From: Arenicellales bacterium
GTDB taxonomy: Bacteria; Pseudomonadota; Gammaproteobacteria; Arenicellales; JAJDZL01
NCBI GenBank assembly: GCA_963666625.1
Contig: OY762925.1
Span: 2,373,792-2,437,791, forward strand
Direction of reading: 5' to 3'
Length of the DNA: 64,000 nucleotides
Shown: positions 4,716 through 18,418 of the stretch, one piece after another
How positions within the stretch are numbered: position 1 is the stretch's first letter
Layout: each line of letters opens with the position of its first letter
Notes under the pieces: model-generated
What the model saw: the letters and a program-made list of their open reading frames with translations, nothing else
Databases searched by the model: none
Told to the model about the DNA's origin: nothing
Translations under genes and position numbers: made by a program

Positions 4716-4961
4716 ATTTTTAACGCCTGAACCATTTGGTATGTGGGTATCGAAAGACTAGATTAGTACCTCATTATAGATTTACACACATAGTGTGATG
4801 TGTGAAGATACTAAATTGCAATCAGACAATATACAGTTTCAACTCGGCCGTGTGACTTGCGTAAAGTATTCCAACACGAGAATTTGCATTCACTTTGATA
4901 TCAGATATTACAATAGTTCCGGTGATTCGACTGAATTGACAAGATACGGAGAGTTCAATCC

Positions 4962-6245
4962 ATGGAGAGTAGAAAAACAATTGCCTTTTTTCCGGAAGGG
5001 GCATTCGGTCCGGCGTTGAATTCCGTCGGTATCGCCCAGGCATGCAGAGATTTGGGACATCGTTGTGTGTTTCTCACTGACCCCGGGTTTGCGGAGGTCT
5101 ATGAGGGATACGGTTTCGAATACAGAATCGTCAATCTTTCCGAACCGATGTCCGCTGAGGAGATGGCCAAATACTGGTCGACATTCATTGATGGGCATAT
5201 TCCGAACTTCAACCTCACTCCGTATGAACAGATTGACAACTATGTCAAGGAATGCTGGGAGGCAATTGTCGATACATCCAAGTGGGCCGAAAAAGACCTT
5301 CCCGGGGTTCTGGACGACTTGAAGCCGGATTTGATCTGTATAGACAATGTTGTCCTGTTCCCTGCAGCGAAGCAGTTTGGTGTACCGTGGATTCGCATCA
5401 TATCCTGCAGCGAGAATGAAATAACGGATCCTTGGATTCCACCGCATCTGTCGGGTTGCGGCGAATCCGACCGAGACGGCTTCGACGCTTACAACAGCCG
5501 ATTCAATCAAGTCATAAAACCCATTCACGATGATTTCAACAACTTTATCGAGTCATGCGGTGAAACCGCCTACCAGCTTGGTGAGTTTTTCGAGGCCTCA
5601 CCCTACATGAATCTGTTGCTCTATCCGGAACCTTTGCAGTATCAGAGGAAAAACGCTCTGGATCCGGCAAAGTTTCAATATCTCGAAGGATGCGTTCGGT
5701 CGGAAGAGGATTACACCATTCCCGACTTCGGAGATAAAAACAGGTCTCCTTTGATTTACTTGAGTTTTGGGAGTCTGGGCTCGGGTGATACTGAGTTGCT
5801 GAAACGTATGATCGAAGTTCTGGGACAGCAGGATTTTCGGGTGCTTGTCAACATCGGCGATTATTCAGATGCGTACGGCGAGGTACCCGACAATGTTCAC
5901 ATTGCTTCGTGGTATCCACAGCCGTCGGTTATCTCACAGGTTGACGCGGTCATACATCATGGCGGCAACAACAGTTTCAACGAGTGTCTTTATTTTGGCA
6001 AACCGGCTCTGATCATGCCGTATGTTTGGGATGGACATGACAATGCGACCAGAGTTCAGGAAACCGGACACGGCCTAAAGATGCACAGAGCCAACTGGTC
6101 CGATGATGAGTTTGTTTCCGCTTTGCAAACCCTGCTCACAGATGACGCCATGCATGCTCGCCTGGCAAGAACCAGTGCACACATGCGAGCGGCCGACGGC
6201 AGACGGAAAGCTGCAGGAATAATCGATCAGTTACTTGATTCGTGA
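4962..6245 (+). CDS. GT1-family UDP-glycosyltransferase (MGT-like)
   Basis: 427 aa. C-terminal nucleotide-sugar motif region ...WYPQPSVISQVDAVIHHGGNNSFNECLYFGKPALIMPYVWDGHDNATRV... is typical of GT1/UDP-glucuronosyl-glucosyltransferases. Confidence 0.8.
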   Translation: MESRKTIAFFPEGAFGPALNSVGIAQACRDLGHRCVFLTDPGFAEVYEGYGFEYRIVNLSEPMSAEEMAKYWSTFIDGHIPNFNLTPYEQIDNYVKECWEAIVDTSKWAEKDLPGVLDDLKPDLICIDNVVLFPAAKQFGVPWIRIISCSENEITDPWIPPHLSGCGESDRDGFDAYNSRFNQVIKPIHDDFNNFIESCGETAYQLGEFFEASPYMNLLLYPEPLQYQRKNALDPAKFQYLEGCVRSEEDYTIPDFGDKNRSPLIYLSFGSLGSGDTELLKRMIEVLGQQDFRVLVNIGDYSDAYGEVPDNVHIASWYPQPSVISQVDAVIHHGGNNSFNECLYFGKPALIMPYVWDGHDNATRVQETGHGLKMHRANWSDDEFVSALQTLLTDDAMHARLARTSAHMRAADGRRKAAGIIDQLLDS

Positions 6246-6267
6246 ATTTGCGGACGAGAGTTGTGCA

Positions 6268-6591
6268 TCACAACTGAACGTAAACCTTGCCATCGGTGAC
6301 AACCACCTTATACGTCTGCAGGTCAGTTTCAGCCGGCTCTTCAACTACCGCGCCGGTCCTGACTTCAAATTCAGCCAGATGAAGCGGACACACGATGCGG
6401 TCGTCTTCGATATACCCATCCGATAGGCAGGCATATTCATGGGTACAGATATTATTGATTGCAAAGATCTCTTCGTCCATCAATACAAGGGCGATTTCCT
6501 CACCCGCGATATCAACGGGATAAGGTTCCCGGTCTTCAAGATCAGAAAACTCTGCAGCGTAGTGGCAGTTTTCAAGATTGGTGTCGTTCAT
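6268..6591 (-). CDS. Rieske [2Fe-2S] ferredoxin-like protein
   Basis: 107 aa with Rieske ligand boxes C-T-H (CTHEYACL) and C-P-L-H (CPLHLAEF) at the canonical spacing. Confidence 0.85.
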   Translation of the reverse strand: MNDTNLENCHYAAEFSDLEDREPYPVDIAGEEIALVLMDEEIFAINNICTHEYACLSDGYIEDDRIVCPLHLAEFEVRTGAVVEEPAETDLQTYKVVVTDGKVYVQL

Positions 6592-6899
6592 GATTCCTTT
6601 TTTGCAGTTGGCAATCCAATAAAAGCTGTGATACTTTCGGGCGAAATGACAAATTCACGAGAATTATAGAAAACAGTCGGATTATATTGTTGGATTTGAT
6701 TGTATGAACTTAAACATCACCGAATTATGTCAAAAAATTCGGCAAATTTGATGACAAAATTAGTTAGTACTAATAGAAAGTTCCTTGGGAAGATATAGAA
6801 ATCTTCTATAGTTGGATGAATTCCGAGGTTCGTGGAAGCCTGACGTTATTCGGATATTCAAGGTGTCGCAACTTTCCAATTTCACATTCGCGGCAGCGG

Positions 6900-8732
6900 C
6901 TACTCGTTTGGCTCAATACGTATGACTCTCGGCAACGGTTCTCCACTATTAATCAACTTTTCCTGCTCATTCAGATCTCTTTGGAAATTTACTGTATTTG
7001 AATAGAGATATGTCCAGCAGGAAAACTTGTCGGATGTTGTCAAGTGATTTCGTGCCTTCGCCACCTTCAAGTATTCAATAGCTCTATCCATTTCACCCAA
7101 AATATAGAAAACCAGACTCAAGCATTGAGAATAGTTAGCATTACTTTTGTACTCTACGGTGAAGTAGTCTTTATGAGTAATCACTCGTCGAAAATCTTCT
7201 GTATTTGGCGTTTGGTTTGCTCCCCATTTCGCCATGGCGAAATTGAATAATATAGCCTGGCTGGAACTACCTTTTTCGATTTCATCTTCAACTAATCGGA
7301 TTGCATCATCGAATTGACCTTGCCCAATAAGGTTTAGTACCAGCGTATTGACATCTTCAATATCTGCATCTTCTCCAACTTTATCTAGGGCAGCCCGAAC
7401 CAATTGTTCCGCATGTTTTAGAGAGTTCTTTTCTCGACCAAAATCTTTTGCCAGTTGCAGCAAATTTTGGAACTCCAATTCTATAACGCTTGGCCACGAC
7501 GCTACTTTATCGATAGTGTCCTGAGAATTTGATCCCAACAAGCCAAGAACTTGTTGGATGTCGTTGTAGGAGAGACCGCTAAGATTGGAGGCTTTTCTGG
7601 CGTAATACTCAGCATCTTCATCCATCCCTAGACGACTAGCAACTAGTGCTTTTCGAGCCAGTATTTTTGAACTGTCAGGTGCGATATCAATTAACTGGTT
7701 CGATATTAGGTCAGCCGCTTCATAAAATCCAAGTCGAATGTAAATTTGTACAATTTTCGAGAGAATATTGACATTTTTGTCGTGGTGGGAAAGGATTTGA
7801 TCGATCCGTGATTCCATCAAGTCGAAGCGAAGCATTTCATCTTCATAGTCCAATTCAAAATCCAACATATCTAGTTCGATTTGACGCAAATACATCATTG
7901 CTCCTTTCTCATCTTGAAAATTCTCCTTTTGAATCAATTTGGTGAGCTTCCTGTATTCAGAGGCAAGACGACTTTTTGGTCGAGTCAAAACAAACAGCTC
8001 TTGATTCAACAGAGGTAGACTTGGGTAGTGATGAATCGTTTCCATCGAATTCATATTTGCAATTTCTCGACGAAAGCTCTTCATATTCTTCCATAAGATG
8101 CTGTGTTCGTCATCAATGTCAGGAACATTCGAGGCGGCGAAGTGCAAAGTAATATTTTTCGGCTCTTCTTTAATTTTCTGGACGATTGTTGCCAACCCCC
8201 TAAGATTCTGCTTGTTTGGGAAATACAAAACTACGACAGCATCCGGCAGTTGACGTGTACAAATACCACCAACATCAGTATGCCCCGTGCGCGAGTCAAT
8301 CAATACATAGTCGGGGTTCAAATGACTTTCCCACTGCGCTTTGAGATTAGCTAACAGTAAATACCCATCTCTGTGATCATATAAATTTCTCCATGAAATT
8401 GAATTCAATCGGCCGTGGTACTCAGCATCACGGTAACCCGCCGGCATCACCCACAATTCACCCGGATATTTTTCGGAGAATTTTGCTTGATATAGGAATT
8501 CATCGATTTCGGGTACAACATCGTTATCCAGATAGTGTTTAACGTAGTCAACAATTCCGTTTTTCTTACGTCTCGTTAGATTCAATTGAAAAGTATCTAA
8601 TCCTGGCGCTTCGAGATCGAAGTCCACAGTAAGAACTTTCTTGCCTTCTTTGACCAAGGCGGCAGCACAATTCATTAGTGCCAGTGTTCGCCCAACACCG
8701 CCCTTAAAAGAGTAGAACGTTACGATGTACAT
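6900..8732 (-). CDS. ParA/MinD-superfamily P-loop ATPase with variant KGGVGR Walker A, fused to C-terminal TPR-like helical repeats
   Basis: 610 aa. N-terminus MYIVTFYSFKGGVGRTLALMN... (Walker A) and ...DYVLIDSRTGHTD (Walker B-like). C-terminal ~350 aa contain TPR-like units (e.g. IRLGFYEAADLISNQLIDIAPD, ILGEMDRAIEYLKVAKA). SD GAGGGGA lies 7 nt before the ATG, 12 nt after the mqsA-like stop. Confidence 0.75.
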   Translation of the reverse strand: MYIVTFYSFKGGVGRTLALMNCAAALVKEGKKVLTVDFDLEAPGLDTFQLNLTRRKKNGIVDYVKHYLDNDVVPEIDEFLYQAKFSEKYPGELWVMPAGYRDAEYHGRLNSISWRNLYDHRDGYLLLANLKAQWESHLNPDYVLIDSRTGHTDVGGICTRQLPDAVVVLYFPNKQNLRGLATIVQKIKEEPKNITLHFAASNVPDIDDEHSILWKNMKSFRREIANMNSMETIHHYPSLPLLNQELFVLTRPKSRLASEYRKLTKLIQKENFQDEKGAMMYLRQIELDMLDFELDYEDEMLRFDLMESRIDQILSHHDKNVNILSKIVQIYIRLGFYEAADLISNQLIDIAPDSSKILARKALVASRLGMDEDAEYYARKASNLSGLSYNDIQQVLGLLGSNSQDTIDKVASWPSVIELEFQNLLQLAKDFGREKNSLKHAEQLVRAALDKVGEDADIEDVNTLVLNLIGQGQFDDAIRLVEDEIEKGSSSQAILFNFAMAKWGANQTPNTEDFRRVITHKDYFTVEYKSNANYSQCLSLVFYILGEMDRAIEYLKVAKARNHLTTSDKFSCWTYLYSNTVNFQRDLNEQEKLINSGEPLPRVIRIEPNE

Positions 8733-8744
8733 ATCGAGGTCCCC

Positions 8745-9284
8745 TCAAAGAGCGAACGCGTTGGCCTGATTCATCAGACTCAAATCATGCTCATCCAAGC
8801 ATACAAATTTTTCGGAAAACAACCGAACAAAATTCGACGACTGTTGATCTCTCGACAGCAATGCTTCCAGAGAGCTGTCCGCTGACCCAAGTAAGAAAAT
8901 GAAATTGTCCAATGCGTTGCTCTGAATTCGCTTTCCTTGTTCCCAACTATTGATGGAAGCTATTGCAATTCCAGTCAAGTCTGCGAATTGCGCCTGTGTC
9001 AAATTGAGTTTTTGGCGAATATCTCGGATTTCAGACGGAGTCATGACTCCCAAATACCTGCACACAGCTTCATGACACTTCATGTGGGCTTCCGAAGTTG
9101 TAAATTCGAATCCACAGTCGCGACATTCGTGAACTGGGATAGTAGCACAGAGTATGGGGGCAGATTCGCCCGAACCATGTCTGAAACTCTTCTCTTCAAA
9201 TCTAGTGTTAACACGGTCTGAACCGCACAGTGGGCATGTCAAATTCATAGGTTCCACTTTGGAATTGTTATTTCTACCATTCAT
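8745..9284 (-). CDS. MqsA-like antitoxin (zinc ribbon + XRE-type HTH) with C-terminal extension
   Basis: CPLCG...HECRDCGFEF zinc-ribbon pair followed by the HTH IRQKLNLTQAQFADLTGIAIASINSWEQGKR, the same layout as E. coli MqsA as I recall it. ATG at 9284 is preceded by AGGTGGAG. The ORF track starts at a GTG at 9293, and an ATG at 9248 is also possible. Confidence 0.75.
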   Translation of the reverse strand: MNGRNNNSKVEPMNLTCPLCGSDRVNTRFEEKSFRHGSGESAPILCATIPVHECRDCGFEFTTSEAHMKCHEAVCRYLGVMTPSEIRDIRQKLNLTQAQFADLTGIAIASINSWEQGKRIQSNALDNFIFLLGSADSSLEALLSRDQQSSNFVRLFSEKFVCLDEHDLSLMNQANAFAL

Positions 9285-9300
9285 AATCTCCACCTACATT

Positions 9301-9657
9301 TCAATCAACTTCGTAATGAAAACTCAAACCAGTCAGCCAATCTGATCCTAATTGAAGCTTGATATAGATACCCTGACCTGTACGATCAGGATCTACTATG
9401 AGTTCATAGGCAACGCCTTTGTTAATATTCCGCATCTTAACTTTTTGAAGTTCGTGTCCGTCCGAAAGCAAGTTTTCTATAAATGTCCAACAGGTTGATT
9501 CGGTAAATGGACTATTTGGTCGGTCGGAATCCATAATGTCTGTCACCGAATTCGGATTCCACTTGCTTGAATAAGATGTGGCGACTTGTCCTTGTTCTAT
9601 CATCTGCAACATTTTCGTTCTGACTTTCGGATAGTTATTGCTATTGGTAACCAACAC
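9301..9657 (-). CDS. MqsR-like toxin (putative mRNA interferase)
   Basis: 118 aa. By-eye match to MqsR: YPKVRTKMLQMIEQGQV vs HTRLSQVKKLVNAGQV, and GQGIYIKLQL...GLSFHYE vs GQVYLKITV...IVSFKEK. Toxin-first order upstream of the MqsA-like gene. GTG/TTG start preceded by AGAGGGG. Confidence 0.55.
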   Translation of the reverse strand: MLVTNSNNYPKVRTKMLQMIEQGQVATSYSSKWNPNSVTDIMDSDRPNSPFTESTCWTFIENLLSDGHELQKVKMRNINKGVAYELIVDPDRTGQGIYIKLQLGSDWLTGLSFHYEVD

Positions 9658-11920: not shown

Positions 11921-14739
11921 TGCGATTGTCATGGAATGAGATTCGCGTTCGAGCGGCCAGTTTCGCTGAAAAGTGGAAGGATGCTGAGTATGAGAAGGGT
12001 GAGACACAGAGTTTCTACAACGAGTTTTTCAAAGTTTTTGATGTTGAGCGAAGAACTGTAGCACGATACGAGCATCATGTCTCCAAGCTCAACAACCAGT
12101 CGGGATTTATAGACTTGTTTTGGCCTGGCATGCTGATTGTCGAGCAGAAGAGCGCAGGTCGAAATCTTGAGAAAGCGTACGAGCAAGCGGGAGAGTATTT
12201 TGATGCACTTCCAGAGCGTGAACGTCCACAATATATTCTCGTCAGCGATTTACAGACTTTCGACCTCTACGATTTGGATGAGCGAGAGAGAGTTTCCTTT
12301 TCTCTTGAAAAATTACATCAGCATGTCGAATCGTTTGGTTTCATAGTTGGTGTACAGCGGCGAAAATTTCGAGATCAGGATCCGGCAAATATCAAGGCTG
12401 CGGAATTGGTCGGAAGGTTGCATGATTTGCTCCACGAAGCAGGTTACACCGGGCATGATTTGGAAACATTTCTCGTTCGCATTGTGTTTTGTCTTTTTGC
12501 CGATGACACTGGAATCTTTGAGCCGCGAGATATCTTTCTTGAACTCGTGGAAACACGTACAAATAAAGATGGTTCTGACTTGGGATCTTGGCTGTCGCAA
12601 CTATTTCAGGTTCTGAACACGATTGAGCACGAACGGCAGTTGACGCTTGATGAGGACCTTGCAAGATTTCCCTATGTCAATGGAAAATTATTTGAAGAGC
12701 CACTGCGCATACCGGCCTTCGATTCGTCCATGCGAAGAGCGTTGTTGGAAGCGTGTTATTTCGATTGGTCGGAAATATCCCCTGCTATATTCGGTGCGTT
12801 ATTTCAGTCTGTCATGGATCCGGTGGAACGTCGTGCCCATGGAGCTCATTACACGACAGAGAAAAACATTCTGAAGGTTATTGAACCTTTGTTTCTGGAT
12901 GAACTGCGAGCAGAATTTGAACGTTTGAAGTCCCGCAAAGATTCTCGTCGCATTGTTGATATTCGCCGATTTCACAACAAACTTAGAACTTTGAGCTTTT
13001 TCGACCCTGCTTGTGGCTGCGGCAATTTTTTGATTATTGCGTATAGGGAACTGCGATTGCTTGAAATTGACATCCTGAAAGAAATTCACCCTAAATTGCA
13101 GGGTCAGATACAGCTTGATATCGATGCCACATCATTGTCAAAAATCGATGTTGATCAATTTTATGGAATTGAAATCGGCGAGTTTCCAGTGCGAATTGCG
13201 GAGACAGCATTATGGATGATGGATCACATCATGAACAACAGACTGAGTCTAGAGATCGGTCAAACCTATACGAGAATTCCGTTAAAGGCATCACCAATTA
13301 TCGTGCACGGTGATGCATTGAAAATAGATTGGGAAACCATTCTTTCGCCAGAAAAATGCTCATATCTGTTTGGAAATCCGCCATTTGTCGGTGCAAAATT
13401 GCAAACACCTGATCAACGTATTCAGGTGCGCAGAATAGCGGCACTCGGCAAGAGCGGTGGCACGCTTGATTATGTCTCAGCGTGGTTCATCAAAGCAGGA
13501 GAGTATGTGAAAGTTGGTCACGCTCGAATCGGTTTCGTTGCCACCAACTCGATTACACAAGGCGAGCAGGTTGCACAGCTATGGCCGGTTTTGTTCGAAC
13601 GTTGTAAGTTGGAGATTTCGTTCGCGCACCGTACGTTCGTATGGGGTTCGGATGCGCGTGGAAAAGCACACGTGCATGTCATTATTATTGGACTTGCACG
13701 ACGGAATTCGATCCAGCCAATCAAGCGTCTGTTCAGTTATCCCGACATCAACGGGGAACCGGAGGAGACCGAGCATATCGTTCTATCACCTTATTTGTTT
13801 GATGCCAGCAAACTTACTGATTCTCAATTGGTGGTGCAGGAAGAAAGCGCACCGATCAATGGTATGCAAAGACTGATTATCGGCTCGAAACCAATTGACG
13901 GCGGCAACTACATATTCAACGCAAAACAACGCGCTAAATTGCTGGAAAAAGAGCCTGATGCCGAGCAATTTCTCCACCCGTATGTTGGCGCTCGTGAATT
14001 CCTGCAGGGTAGTGAGCGCTGGATTCTTGCTCTTCATAATGCTCCGCCCAATGTCCTAGGACGATTGCCGCGAGTTCGAGCACGAGTAAGTGCAGTCCGC
14101 ACGTACCGTGAGGTCAGCAAGAGTATCCAGACGCGGAAACTTGCTGAAACCCCGACACTGTACCATGTAAACGTTATCCCGACTGTACCATATTTGGTTA
14201 TTCCTGAAGTTAGTTCGGAACGGCGCGAGTACGCGCCCATCGGCTGGTTAGAACCGCCAGCGATTCCTAGCAACAAGCTCCGACTTCTAGAAAATGCAAA
14301 TCTATCCGATTTCGCTTTGCTGACTTCTGCCATGCACATGGCATGGACGCGCTATATCGGTGGGCGTTTGAAAAGTGATTATTCGTATTCAGTCGGTATC
14401 AACTACAACACGTTCCCATTGCCCCCAAATGCTGATCGATCCAGACTTGAACCATATGCGCAGGCGATTCTCGATGCGAGAAACAACCATCCCGATGCAA
14501 TTCTAGCTGACCTGTATGACCCTGATCTGATGCCGCCTGGCTTGCGAAAGGTACATCAAACCCTGGACAAGGCTGTCGATCAGCTTTATCGTCGTTCAGG
14601 ATTCTCCTCGGAGCGCGAACGAATTGAACACTTGTTCCTGCTTTACGAACAAATGCGAATGCCTTTGAAATTATCAACAGACCAAAATTCGAAACGAAAA
14701 CAGGGAAGAGCCCGTCGTGTTATCAAAAAGGCATCATAA
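11917..14739 (+). CDS. MmeI-family Type IIL restriction-modification enzyme (fused nuclease / N6-adenine methyltransferase / specificity domain)
   Basis: 940 aa. N-terminal D...EXK nuclease motif (GFIDLFWPGMLIVEQKS), SAM motif I FFDPACGCGNFLI, catalytic motif IV FGNPPFVGAK. Length and domain order match MmeI-type enzymes. The ATG overlaps the gmk TGA (ATGA). Confidence 0.85.
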   Translation: MMRLSWNEIRVRAASFAEKWKDAEYEKGETQSFYNEFFKVFDVERRTVARYEHHVSKLNNQSGFIDLFWPGMLIVEQKSAGRNLEKAYEQAGEYFDALPERERPQYILVSDLQTFDLYDLDERERVSFSLEKLHQHVESFGFIVGVQRRKFRDQDPANIKAAELVGRLHDLLHEAGYTGHDLETFLVRIVFCLFADDTGIFEPRDIFLELVETRTNKDGSDLGSWLSQLFQVLNTIEHERQLTLDEDLARFPYVNGKLFEEPLRIPAFDSSMRRALLEACYFDWSEISPAIFGALFQSVMDPVERRAHGAHYTTEKNILKVIEPLFLDELRAEFERLKSRKDSRRIVDIRRFHNKLRTLSFFDPACGCGNFLIIAYRELRLLEIDILKEIHPKLQGQIQLDIDATSLSKIDVDQFYGIEIGEFPVRIAETALWMMDHIMNNRLSLEIGQTYTRIPLKASPIIVHGDALKIDWETILSPEKCSYLFGNPPFVGAKLQTPDQRIQVRRIAALGKSGGTLDYVSAWFIKAGEYVKVGHARIGFVATNSITQGEQVAQLWPVLFERCKLEISFAHRTFVWGSDARGKAHVHVIIIGLARRNSIQPIKRLFSYPDINGEPEETEHIVLSPYLFDASKLTDSQLVVQEESAPINGMQRLIIGSKPIDGGNYIFNAKQRAKLLEKEPDAEQFLHPYVGAREFLQGSERWILALHNAPPNVLGRLPRVRARVSAVRTYREVSKSIQTRKLAETPTLYHVNVIPTVPYLVIPEVSSERREYAPIGWLEPPAIPSNKLRLLENANLSDFALLTSAMHMAWTRYIGGRLKSDYSYSVGINYNTFPLPPNADRSRLEPYAQAILDARNNHPDAILADLYDPDLMPPGLRKVHQTLDKAVDQLYRRSGFSSERERIEHLFLLYEQMRMPLKLSTDQNSKRKQGRARRVIKKAS

Positions 14740-15134
14740 CTCGCTCCTGATAAGGGTTGCCGAATAAACTTGTTGTTTTGGGTTGCGATTCGACGTTATC
14801 AGCGATACTGTCCGGTTCCAGTTCGATCGTGCAAGTCCAAATTTGGCATGGCATCGTCGTGCCTGCAGTTCAATGATTTTATTTGTTGGTTGCCAGTCAT
14901 GCCTTTCGGGTATTCGGTCTCCTCTATTCCGGCGGTGAAGGCGAGTCCGGGCGTGGTTGCTTGAAAAGTTGTAAAACCGTCTCCGGCAAGGCTATTGGGA
15001 GAAGGCGAAACTCCAGTCTCCGAAGTTACTTTCCAATCAATGGCCAGCAATGTTGCTGAAGAGAACAATTACGCGCTGTATGGTGGGCAGGAACACCCGC
15101 GCAAGGGTATAGGAATACGGATATAATCGATTCC

Positions 15135-15420
15135 ATGAGTGAAGCCATTGCCTTTGATACACATCGCTTAGTCAAGCGCCTGACCGAGTGCGGTTTCAGC
15201 GAGAAGCAGGCCGAGACCCTGGCGGAGGAGCATTTCGCCCCTCTTAACACTAACCTTGCGACCAAGACGGATACTTTGGAGGTCAAGGCCGAAGTTGAGG
15301 GGGCTGCGTCAGGAGACCAAGACTGAGATTGAAGGGGTGAAGGCCGATATTCTCAAGTGGATATTCGGTGCGTTGATCGCTCAGGGCGGTCTGATTGTCG
15401 CGTTGATCAAGCTGCTTTAA
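15135..15420 (+). pseudogene. DUF1640-family coiled-coil/membrane-anchored protein, interrupted by a +1 frameshift in a G5 run
   Basis: N-terminal frame: MSEAIAFDTHRLVKRLTECGFSEKQAETLAEEH... stops at 15324-15326. The C-terminal part continues in the +1 frame: LRQETKTEIEGVKADILKWIFGALIAQGGLIVALIKLL* (stop 15418-15420). The frames join if one G of GGGGG (15299-15303) is removed. Confidence 0.6.
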
Positions 15421-15549
15421 ATTCAACTTGGGCTGGCAAAATACAGATTGTCAGTTTCAATGCAACGTAAAGTCGCAATCTGCAGAAAGATAGTTTCATA
15501 GCATCACTGTAATCTACCGAACGACTGGCAAAGGTTCCGGCTGTGTTTG

Positions 15550-16746
15550 TCAAATGATGTTCTGCTCCGAGTATTTCGAGTTGCTGAGCACCCTCTCGTA
15601 ACCCAGATTGGTCAGATCAATCGACACATATCGACCGTAGATCATCAGTTCTGAAATGGCCCGTCCGACTGCCGGTGCCTGCTGCACGCCGTGACCGCTG
15701 AATCCGGTCGCGATGAAATAGTTCGAAATTTCAGGATGGCTGCCAACGATTCCGTTCTGGTCGAGTGTGTTGTAGTCGTAATGCCCGGCCCATGCCCGGT
15801 TCAGACGAATCGCTTCGAACCGGGGAATTCGATGAGCCAGCAACGGCCAGAGGATATCGTCGAATATTTCATAGTCGACCTCCAAGGAATGATCATCTGG
15901 GTCAGGGTCGCTTTTCGACGGAGTCCATCCGCAAAGATAGCCGTCACCTTCCGGTCGCACATAGAATCCTGCCGGGTCTACTAAAAGAGGGAGATTGTCA
16001 ATTGGGTTAGCAGACTTGAATGAAAAGACACATCGCTTCTTCGGAGAAACCGGCAGAGCAATGCCTGACAGCTTGGCGAATCTGCCCGATGCGGCACCGG
16101 CCGCATTGACGACCGAACCGCAAGCGACATTGGTACCGGATGCCAGTTCAACTTTGTTGACAAGATTATTCCGTTGCCGGACCGCTACCGCTTCATCTTC
16201 AATGTAAAGTACTCCCAATGAGAGACATTTGTTCTTCAGCGCGATCAGCATACTATAGGGGTCAAACCAGCCCTCATTGCCGGACCCCTGACAACCGGCG
16301 GCGATACCATGGGAATTCAGCCATGGAAACTTCCGCGAAATGGCTTCTCCATCCAGGAATTCTACAGGCGCGCGACATTCCAGTTGAACCTTGTGTGCAG
16401 ACTTCAGTTGCCCGAGTCCTTCATGGGTGGCCAGAATAAGGTATGACGATTCAATCAGGTTGACATCCGGAACTGTGTCACGAACTTGCAACTCGGTTCC
16501 GGCGTTTTGGAGAAATTCAAAACTGTACTGAGAAATTTTGATGTTTTCCGATGTGGAAAACTGCTGACGAATCGAGCCCAGTGATCGTGCGGTCGATCCA
16601 TTGCTGTAAGTCGAGTCTTTCTCGATTACGGCAATCGACTCTTCAAAGTCTGGATTTGAGGAGAGGAAGTATGCGATCGCGCTTCCAATGATTCCTCCTC
16701 CGACTATCACAACGTCGTAACTCGTAGAATGTCGGAAACCAGTCAT
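15550..16746 (-). CDS. FAD-dependent oxidoreductase (DAO / sarcosine-oxidase-beta-like family)
   Basis: 398 aa. N-terminal dinucleotide fold YDVVIVGGGIIGSAIAYFL. C-terminal ...ATGFSGHGVQQAPAVGR... is typical of the DAO family. Confidence 0.85.
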   Translation of the reverse strand: MTGFRHSTSYDVVIVGGGIIGSAIAYFLSSNPDFEESIAVIEKDSTYSNGSTARSLGSIRQQFSTSENIKISQYSFEFLQNAGTELQVRDTVPDVNLIESSYLILATHEGLGQLKSAHKVQLECRAPVEFLDGEAISRKFPWLNSHGIAAGCQGSGNEGWFDPYSMLIALKNKCLSLGVLYIEDEAVAVRQRNNLVNKVELASGTNVACGSVVNAAGAASGRFAKLSGIALPVSPKKRCVFSFKSANPIDNLPLLVDPAGFYVRPEGDGYLCGWTPSKSDPDPDDHSLEVDYEIFDDILWPLLAHRIPRFEAIRLNRAWAGHYDYNTLDQNGIVGSHPEISNYFIATGFSGHGVQQAPAVGRAISELMIYGRYVSIDLTNLGYERVLSNSKYSEQNII

Positions 16747-16870
16747 TTCGAGGCCAATCCGATTGAATTTTTAAGATATGGAAACATTAACCGATTCTTA
16801 ACTGCCCCATCTTTCCAGAGGATTATCGTATTTACCCAATTACTTGACTACTAATGGATAGGAGTCCTTT

Positions 16871-18418
16871 ATGAAATCAAAAATTATACGTTCACCAGTT
16901 TCCTGGTGGATTGTTGCAGCAGTTGTCCTGTCGATTTCGGCACTCTTGCTTACGCGGCCGATTCCCTCCGTGCTCGCGACGGACAACTCCCCGGTCAATT
17001 CAGGTCTGAGTGGCGATGTCATCCACACAGGATTCGCAAATCTGGTTGAGGCTGTCGCGCCGACTGTGGTGTCGGTTCATGTCAAGACAACCAGGTTGAC
17101 GGAAAGTTCGAACATGATGGAAGAGTACTTTTCCAACCTGCCGGAAGGTTTGCGAAACTTTCCCAACTGGAATTTCTGGGAAAATTTCGGTCCTGATCAG
17201 TTCAATCCGCACCAATATCGCGGACCTCGAAATGATAAGAGAAGGTTTGGCCAGGAAGTCGGCGGTTCGGGAGTGATTATAGATGCACAAGGGTACGTCA
17301 TCACCAATCATCATGTCGTCGAGGATGCGGAACAGATCCTGGTCACGACAATGCATGGCACCTCATATCCGGCCATGATGATCGGTGAGGACCCGGTAGC
17401 GGACATTGCTGTTCTGAAAATCGAGAGTGATGATACATTTCCATTCGTCGAGTTCGGAGATTCTCGAGAAGTGAGAGTAGGTGACTGGGTAGTCGCGATC
17501 GGTAACCCATTCGGATTGTCCGGTACTGTGACTCTGGGTGTGCTTTCCGCGAAAGCGAGATCGATGCCCAATTCAGCCCCTCAGGTACCGCTGTTTCAGG
17601 TTGACGCAGCAATAAACGAGGGAAATTCCGGTGGACCGCTGTTCAATACTAAAGGTCAGGTGATCGGTCTGAACACCCTGATTCTTTCACCTACCGGAAC
17701 CAGTGTCGGTCTCAATTTTGCCGTTCCTTCCGAAGTATTGGAGCATGTGTCTTACGAGTTGATTGAGAACGGCAGGGTTTCACGAGGACAGCTTGGAATC
17801 CTGATTCAGGATATCACACCCGACATCGCGAGTGTTCTGAGCCTGGGTACAGATTCTCAGGGAAGCTGGGGCGCCATGGTTGCAGATGTTTATCCGGACA
17901 GTCCGGCACAGCGAGCTGGAATCCAATACGGCGATATCGTCCTTGAATATGACCAGCAACAAGTTGACAAGGTTGCGACCCTGCAATCGATGGTCAGACA
18001 GACTACGCCCGGAGATGAGGTGACTGTCGTAGTATTTCGAGACGGTGAAACAGTGTCACTGGACGTAAAGGTAGGCGACATGGCAGGCAACAACGAAATC
18101 GTGGTTGCCCAAGACGACCGGGATCAGCCATCAATTGGAATAAAGATTTCCGAGTTGAATCCGGAATTGCGCTCGCAGTTGAATATCGATGAAGATGTCG
18201 ATGGGATTGTGGTGGTTGAGGTCCTGCCCGGAAGTCCGGCGGAAATGGCTGGTCTGCGACCGGGTGACATCATTCACTCACTGGACCGGCAGTCTGTCAG
18301 CTCGGTGAACCAATTTCTAGGCAACTTTGAGAAGATTGCAGAATCCGGATCAGACAAGGTTTTGTTGCACGTCGAACGCAACGGTTCCAAAAGCTTTACT
18401 GTATTGGATCTGTCTTAA
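16871..18418 (+). CDS. DegP/DegQ-family periplasmic serine endoprotease (trypsin domain + two PDZ domains)
   Basis: 515 aa. Signal peptide, catalytic His (VITNHHVV), Asp (DIAVLKI) and Ser (GNSGGPL), then two PDZ-like segments (GIQYGDIVLEY..., GLRPGDIIHSLD...). Confidence 0.9.
   Translation: MKSKIIRSPVSWWIVAAVVLSISALLLTRPIPSVLATDNSPVNSGLSGDVIHTGFANLVEAVAPTVVSVHVKTTRLTESSNMMEEYFSNLPEGLRNFPNWNFWENFGPDQFNPHQYRGPRNDKRRFGQEVGGSGVIIDAQGYVITNHHVVEDAEQILVTTMHGTSYPAMMIGEDPVADIAVLKIESDDTFPFVEFGDSREVRVGDWVVAIGNPFGLSGTVTLGVLSAKARSMPNSAPQVPLFQVDAAINEGNSGGPLFNTKGQVIGLNTLILSPTGTSVGLNFAVPSEVLEHVSYELIENGRVSRGQLGILIQDITPDIASVLSLGTDSQGSWGAMVADVYPDSPAQRAGIQYGDIVLEYDQQQVDKVATLQSMVRQTTPGDEVTVVVFRDGETVSLDVKVGDMAGNNEIVVAQDDRDQPSIGIKISELNPELRSQLNIDEDVDGIVVVEVLPGSPAEMAGLRPGDIIHSLDRQSVSSVNQFLGNFEKIAESGSDKVLLHVERNGSKSFTVLDLS

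Follow-up and report, generated by a model that had tools for sequence, protein, structure and literature searches.

The window, by which we mean the whole analysed stretch of 64,000 nucleotides, contains at 6900-9657 three tightly packed, co-directional open reading frames on the minus strand, separated by gaps of 7 nt and 12 nt. The genes and their features are:

9301-9657, minus strand: ORF1, 118 aa, putative toxin upstream of the antitoxin, with the C-terminal end ...IYIKLQLGSDWLTGLSFHYEVD (list of open reading frames).
8745-9293, minus strand: ORF2, 182 aa from a GTG start, MqsA-family antitoxin with a C-terminal tail (TIGR03830, PF15731, PF01381, Foldseek match to 3GN5).
9114-9236, minus strand: zinc-ribbon domain of ORF2, residues 20-60, with C20-x2-C23 and C57-x2-C60 (59-sequence alignment, two models).
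8853-9044, minus strand: XRE-type helix-turn-helix (HTH) of ORF2, residues 84-147, at the end of which the MqsA family profile stops (PF01381, 3gn5 alignment).
8817-8852, minus strand: variable tail linker, residues 148-159, RDQQSSNFVRLF; R148 is conserved, the remainder is not, and the length varies (entropy 3.25, tail alignment, pLDDT 52).
8748-8816, minus strand: conserved C-terminal tail module, residues 160-182, SEKFVCLDEHDLSLMNQANAFAL, with the anchors F163, L166, A177, F180 and L182 (alignments, motif HMM, fusion model).
8733-8747, minus strand: ORF2-ORF3 junction, consisting of the TGA stop (8745-8747) and a 12-nt spacer (GGGGACCTCGAT) with a purine-rich, ribosome-binding-like stretch (sequence).
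6900-8732, minus strand: ORF3, 610 aa, ParA-like ATPase-TPR.
7908-8732, minus strand: ATPase core of ORF3, residues 1-275, a ParA/MinD-like core of the KGGVGR variant (NF047398, Foldseek).
6903-7835, minus strand: TPR-like domain of ORF3, residues 300-610, all-helical, presumed sensor (weak TPR_14, TPR_19, TPR_8 and TPR_2 matches, pLDDT, Foldseek).

The ORF2 product on record (P0001) has 179 aa, the length expected if translation begins at the ATG of residue 4. ORF2 and ORF3 share one frame, with the TGA and four codons between them; read-through translation reads ...AFAL-G-GDLD-MYIVTF and would give a 797-aa fusion. The two genes were in frame in 27 of about 82 loci, which equals the chance expectation, so there is no sign of selection for read-through.

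The core of ORF2 places it in the MqsA family. The family profile TIGR03830 matched with 71.7 bits (cut-off 61.8), residues 20-144 covering profile positions 1-125 of 127, and PF15731 matched residues 19-135 with 34.3 bits (cut-off 30). C20, C23, C57 and C60 were invariant in an alignment of 59 sequences, and the zinc ribbon was modelled as two long strands with pLDDT >84 in both AF2 models. The HTH was recognised by PF01381 (residues 89-124, E=1e-8). When ORF2 was combined with three relatives in a profile, residues 4-129 (of 133) of E. coli MqsA (3gn5) aligned to positions 16-142; the same structure, 3GN5, was the top Foldseek PDB match of the ORF2 AF2 model, over 134 columns. The family profile finishes near residue 147, as does the structure of E. 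coli MqsA, so that residues 148-182 of ORF2 lie beyond all that defines MqsA. The tail of about 35-40 aa behind the HTH that the sequence-only reading had described is therefore an addition to the family fold by both the profile and the 3gn5 alignment. The locus resembles E. coli MqsR-MqsA in its toxin-first order and in an antitoxin with zinc ribbon and XRE-type HTH of the 3GN5 fold; it differs in that E. coli MqsA (131 aa) ends at the HTH and lacks a third gene, and in that ORF1 does not match the MqsR Pfam model.

After ...LEALLS the tail reads RDQQSSNFVRLFSEKFVCLDEHDLSLMNQANAFAL (residues 148-182, 35 residues, nt 8748-8852); the interval 8745-8865, initially taken for it, comprises residues 144-182 and the stop codon. 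Since 35 open codons could by themselves occur by chance, we regard the tail as real because it is conserved. A word-based homologue search with ORF2 returned only two relatives, while 5772 were recovered when 1.84 billion representatives were searched with a profile, and 390 of these scored at E<=1e-30; the family is large but fast-diverging, and exhaustive profile search was needed to see it. The best 150 of these 390 strong representatives were mostly 175-200 aa long, with a median of 47 residues after the HTH.

Across about 190 relatives the module follows the consensus [RK]-F-[RP]-x-[LI] ... [EQ]-A-x-x-F-x-L-[R], preceded by R148 and the variable linker, and the window carries it as K-F163-V-C-L166 ... 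A177-N-A-F180-A-L182 (KFVCL...ANAFAL). Among 114 representative tails the four anchors were F in 83%, L/I in 86%, F/W in 98% and L in 89%; in alignment A8 they were kept in 62-89% of the sequences. The pattern F..Phi-x(8-20)-F.Phi occurred in 76 of the 114 tails; shuffled tails averaged 2.8 occurrences, with 9 as the maximum. When an HMM was built from the module, it marked antitoxin C-termini in separately fetched loci and gave no other significant match there. In most close pairs the dN/dS of the tail was 0.14-0.59 (1.09 in one pair) and that of the core 0.09-0.30; being higher in the tail and yet mostly below 1, these values indicate a faster-evolving but constrained segment. The suspicion that the tail might be low-complexity or poorly conserved sequence was thus dispelled by a motif shared among the 114 tails and about 190 relatives. 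The canonical MqsA proteins compared here have no such tail. In L115 and L116, where related ATPases have non-MqsA partners encoded upstream, these partners were considered as carriers of a portable copy of the motif; the resemblance was by eye, the motif HMM gave E>10, and the idea was abandoned.

The end of the tail is hydrophobic (FxL). In 189 tails, between 0 and 8 variable residues came after the F-x-L, R or A being frequent among them. The 189 tails share no conserved acidic, EEVD-like terminus. A C-terminal -AA was present in 29 of them; the window tail ends in -AL (-AFAL).

ORF1 has the position and size of an upstream MqsR toxin gene. Its family conserves W33, F51, W57, H68, Y98-x-K100 and R111-S-F-H114 (23 homologues). 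ORF1 gave no match in Pfam, NCBIfam, PADLOC or PDB sequences, and the MqsR model PF15723 matched none of the 23 homologues. Canonical MqsR proteins beside canonical MqsA in related genomes do match PF15723, and they end with the same LYIKL...SFH signature. When the ORF1 family was compared with canonical MqsR by hhalign, E=0.001 and a probability of 22% were obtained over only 23 C-terminal columns (YIKL...SFH); against E. coli MqsR alone E was 0.085-0.29. That ORF1 is an MqsR-like toxin is plausible.

ORF3 was assigned by NF047398 (E=2.6e-52, 177.9 bits, cut-off 90), and the model of its core gave Foldseek matches to Soj, ParA, MinD, BcsQ and FlhG. With a mean column entropy of 1.23 the ATPase core is the most conserved part of the operon; the helical part reaches 2.2-2.6. 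The latter consists of helices throughout, with pLDDT >90 and Foldseek matches to consensus TPR superhelices. The Walker A motif is FKGGVGRT (residues 9-16, nt 8685-8708): the canonical P-loop lysine is arginine family-wide, and the deviant 'signature' lysine (K10) is retained. This variant points to a dimer switch that depends on the nucleotide and in which hydrolysis is altered or slow. A literature search with the terms 'KGGVGR' or 'PDC-M28' found no paper.

The link between tail and ATPase gene was followed across loci. The 201 related genomes contained 19 close homologues of the ATPase, and every one of these had an ORF1-like gene and a tailed ORF2-like gene of 177-196 aa directly upstream; six distant KGGVGR ATPases had neither an ORF1-like nor an ORF2-like gene. 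A metagenome scan with alignment A7 added 80 loci, and a contig scan with alignment A1 gave one locus. Scoring was done on 105 loci with a complete antitoxin and visible downstream DNA, 30 aa or more being counted as a tail: 82 had tail and ATPase, 17 had neither, five had a tail only and one an ATPase only. A toxin-antitoxin-ATPase triad of the window type was present in more than 80 loci. Comparing MqsA homologues with and without a downstream ATPase-TPR gene, a check put forward along with the sequence-only reading, thus showed that the tail co-varies with that gene (82/17/6). The same reading had allowed that such tails might be common in stand-alone pairs; in the 105 loci the tail was found almost only together with the ATPase gene.

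The six discordant loci could be described individually. L090-L092 encode double-HTH proteins, the second HTH of which had been counted as a "tail"; L177 has 30 residues without the motif; in L199 the ATPase gene is split. L083 is the only locus with a motif-bearing tail and no ATPase, and its toxin ends in GRSFYT, the near-invariant histidine being missing. A tree of antitoxin cores implied 10 or more losses of the ATPase, of which no fewer than six are required by well-supported branches. The tail changed in the same way as the ATPase in 5.4 of 6 independent contrasts and never in the opposite way. Once the ATPase is gone, the tail does not persist. A two-gene clade without tail comprises L159, L162, L166, L171, L181 and L186, and there are further tail-less lineages besides. 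A toxin with intact YxK and SFH signatures was found in 10 of the 17 loci lacking tail and ATPase; the antitoxins of L159 and L162 lie at contig ends, and their toxin ORFs fell outside the scoring. From these natural tail-less two-gene relatives with intact toxins we infer that the tail is dispensable for toxin neutralisation.

Several loci at the margins of this comparison are of interest by themselves. L082, L083, L093 and L094 form a decay series in related genomes: in L082:2239-2929 a 64-aa ORF still encodes the tail motif, now out of frame, L093:2464-2931 is a solo truncated antitoxin at the site of a short-ATPase locus, and in L083:2133-3073 the tail is kept and a cysteine-desulfurase-like gene occupies the position of the ATPase. 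The double-HTH proteins of L090:2344-3204(-), L091:2481-3323(+) and L092:2419-3279(+) have one zinc ribbon and two HTH in 280-286 aa, beside an intact ORF1-like toxin and no ATPase.

We also modelled the read-through ORF2-ORF3 fusion with AF2, using alignment A8 with 16 naturally in-frame pairs plus unpaired rows. The model reached a mean pLDDT of 88.5 and a pTM of 0.74. The linker remained at pLDDT 52 (residues 151-160, with 154-157 below 50), and the module reached 85 (161-170) and 80 (171-180), with a helix at 171-179. ORF2 modelled alone had pLDDT 36, 37 and 41 in the blocks 151-160, 161-170 and 171-180, a comparison confounded by alignment depth (112 versus 4 aligned sequences) and by the 5-residue tether to the ATPase N-terminus in the fusion. 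The fusion model fits a tail module that packs against something.

Taken as a whole, the data make it probable that the tail links the toxin-antitoxin pair to the ParA-like ATPase. In the mechanism that we propose, it would consist of a flexible linker and a conserved short linear motif of about 23 residues at the C-terminus, the role of which depends on the third gene. If the antitoxin is a dimer, as assumed by analogy with E. coli MqsA, there would be two tails per dimer. The tail would dock the MqsA-like antitoxin onto the KGGVGR ParA-like ATPase-TPR, so that the three products form one complex, and the nucleotide or sensor state of the ATPase would decide whether the antitoxin keeps hold of the MqsR-like toxin. 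That the tail docks the antitoxin on ORF3, more likely on the ATPase side, and that the sensor or nucleotide state of ORF3 is then passed to the pair, is a reading we consider reasonably probable; the physical docking itself we infer.

The sequence-only reading had placed the contact elsewhere, in the TPR domain of the downstream ATPase. The coupling to ORF3 that it proposed is borne out by co-occurrence, while conservation, the short ATPases and the hydrophobic end of the tail argue against the TPR domain as the reader. TPR domains commonly bind short terminal peptides, and that of ORF3 might hold the tail peptide in its groove in the fashion of TPR co-chaperones, reading or hiding a degron. 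The tail co-occurs with the whole of ORF3, and the data do not cleanly separate its ATPase and TPR domains. All MqsA-linked ATPases examined share a homologous helical domain, which every full-length form has and of which the short forms keep about two repeats, so the TPR domain could still be the reader. The tail anchors F163, L166, F180 and L182, however, show roughly the conservation of the ATPase core, a level that the TPR part falls well short of. In addition, the ATPases of L035 and L041 (383-396 aa) lack about 230 helical residues and retain about 75, and the antitoxins adjoining them keep an intact module (RFPDI...SFHL, RFPDI...IFRI). The same truncation was seen in the ATPases P0052 and P0044 (367-371 aa). 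In favour of the TPR domain it can be said that the short ATPases, to judge by their high sequence similarity, are apparently a narrow lineage. Against it, a conserved acidic terminus is absent from the tail, the end of which is hydrophobic or basic, and the published model has the TPR domain sensing an invader signal and not the antitoxin (bioRxiv 10.64898/2026.10.19.760177). We therefore consider binding of the tail in the TPR groove unlikely, and think that the tail docks on the conserved ATPase core or the adjoining first helical repeats rather than on the distal TPR array. No MqsA-linked ATPase with a non-TPR sensor was found. Among the candidates inspected for this, P0006 and P0021 proved homologous throughout to the helical domain of the window, P0053 is interrupted by an IS110 element and P0120 is frameshifted.

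The tail might also have nothing to do with ORF3 and be an extra oligomerisation, operator-binding or toxin-contacting element, its co-loss with the ATPase reflecting DNA adjacency. The tail-coding DNA abuts the ATPase gene and one deletion can remove both, so that the co-loss is partly a matter of adjacency; in L094 (2111-3418) a deletion that starts in the tail and stops within the TPR region has left behind a remnant ORF of the C-terminal TPR. A tail-like motif after each HTH of the double-HTH proteins P0131 and P0133 hints at an HTH-plus-tail unit, and the PADLOC capH profile aligns to residues 87-175 (E=1.9e-5). capH is an HTH regulator with a C-terminal oligomerisation part. On such grounds, however, survival of the tail after ATPase loss should be frequent, and it was seen only in L083, where the toxin is damaged. 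Moreover, canonical MqsA proteins do without a tail, and so do the two-gene clade and the other tail-less lineages with intact toxins (those of L159 and L162 unscored). An ORF3-independent tail thus seems quite improbable to us. Still more improbable is a plain C-terminal degron for a housekeeping protease (ClpXP or Lon) without docking on ORF3. Type II antitoxins are typically protease-labile, and the -AA end in 29 of 189 tails, together with small non-polar ends in many others, would suit a degron; the conserved part, however, is an internal F...L...F-x-L module lying 0-8 residues from a variable end, the window tail ends in -AFAL, and the strict link to the ATPase gene would be left unexplained.

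Within the docking mechanism, the ChAD of TAC systems suggests by analogy that the tail may also leave the antitoxin reliant on the ATPase. In that case it would act as an 'ATPase-addiction' element: a ChAD-like module of conditional instability, or degron, hidden for as long as it is docked on the ParA-like protein. Triggering of the TPR sensor would change the nucleotide or dimer state of the ATPase and release the tail, after which the antitoxin would be degraded or inactivated and the MqsR-like RNase freed. If true, this would account both for the ATPase being dispensable only where the tail or the toxin has gone too (L083) and for the ssrA-like -AA ends in a subset of tails. The support from L083, a single locus, and from the 29 of 189 -AA tails is thin, and we hold this extension only tentatively, as possible rather than probable. 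The exposure of a degron upon release and the docking surface on ORF3 are both speculative.

Three-gene systems of this kind have been described as TA-ParA ternary systems, in which a type II TA pair (MqsR-MqsA being listed) is accompanied by a ParA fused to a C-terminal sensor, most often TPR (bioRxiv 10.64898/2026.10.19.760177). The preprint, dated October 2026 and computational, posits ParA as a switch that reorganises the interaction of toxin and antitoxin. The window triad has this architecture, combining a TA pair with a ParA-like ATPase that carries a presumed TPR-like sensor domain. The system as such is thus already described; the tail motif does not appear in the main text of the preprint, nor does any antitoxin element in contact with ParA, be it a tail or another C-terminal extension. 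With respect to the model as given there, the conserved tail module would be the missing contact for the ParA switch. TA-ParA was proposed recently from genome context, and the module of about 23 residues offers a concrete handle on the communication between the ParA sensor and the TA pair.

TAC systems already provide examples of antitoxin extensions that a third component reads; here the reader is apparently a different one, and the extension has a family-wide motif. The comparison with chaperone-addiction extensions made in the sequence-only reading was well chosen, as there is a tested precedent within the MqsA family: V. cholerae MqsA has a ChAD (residues 136-176) recognised by a SecB-like chaperone; this extension is transferable, and neutralisation does not require it (PMC5105189). 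TAC systems, V. cholerae MqsRA-SecB among them, share with the window an MqsA-family antitoxin with a C-terminal extension (about 40 residues in Vcho-MqsA, 35 in the window). In contrast, the third gene of the window encodes a KGGVGR ParA-like ATPase-TPR and not a SecB-like chaperone, and the window-type tail has its motif throughout the family, whereas ChAD sequences were reported to be without similarity to one another (PMC5105189). If the tail works like a ChAD, it would represent a second, unrelated way of making antitoxins depend on a third protein, and could serve as a portable tag placing proteins under a ParA-type switch.

Docking on the ATPase side would also have parallels. ParA/MinD-type ATPases are bound by peptides of ParB, MinE and BcsR, and the structural matches of the ORF3 ATPase fold include Soj-Spo0J, MinD and BcsQ-BcsR. 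The N-terminal peptide of ParB/Spo0J, MinE and BcsR would have in common with the tail, if it docks as we suppose, that a short disordered peptide of a dimeric DNA-binding partner meets a deviant-Walker-A ATPase dimer. The window peptide differs from these partners in being C-terminal and in having hydrophobic anchors (F, L, F, L), and from EEVD-type TPR peptides in having no conserved acidic C-terminus. Since arginine replaces the P-loop lysine (KGGVGRT), stimulation of hydrolysis may not be the point of the contact.

KGGVGR ATPases with other partners were observed as well, in L096-L114 (other classes of the same phylum), L049:1896-2543 and L050:1922-2563. In one group a protein of about 145 aa with a HEPN-like R-x4-6-H signature lies directly upstream, and the ATPase has an N-terminal extension of about 125 aa. 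In another, TIR-like proteins are found upstream of ATPases of 508-883 aa, which fits the TIR-ParA class of the preprint (bioRxiv 10.64898/2026.10.19.760177).

In the window the next gene (6268-6591, minus strand) follows ORF3 after about 300 bp of non-coding DNA. A fourth gene of 370-379 aa, absent from the window, overlaps the ATPase stop in 5 of the 36 loci with enough downstream DNA (L003:7364-8491, L040:4327-5451, L196:2954-4072, L129:6194-7306 and L163:7406-8545); it had no Pfam match in L003, L040 and L196.

The genome of the window harbours a second, diverged triad, L009 (G000:C1:2661000-2673000; locus 4719-7461, minus strand). It encodes a toxin of 117 aa, an antitoxin of 185 aa with the tail ...DQFRAIVITSQLWERRKEFQLRRAA and an ATPase-TPR of 605 aa; the anchors of its tail are the same as in the window tail, and the other residues differ. 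Two triads about 8 kb apart were likewise present in L035 (G005:C1:1068000-1087500), at 5999-8694 and 14656-17002, with ATPases of 589 aa and 383 aa.
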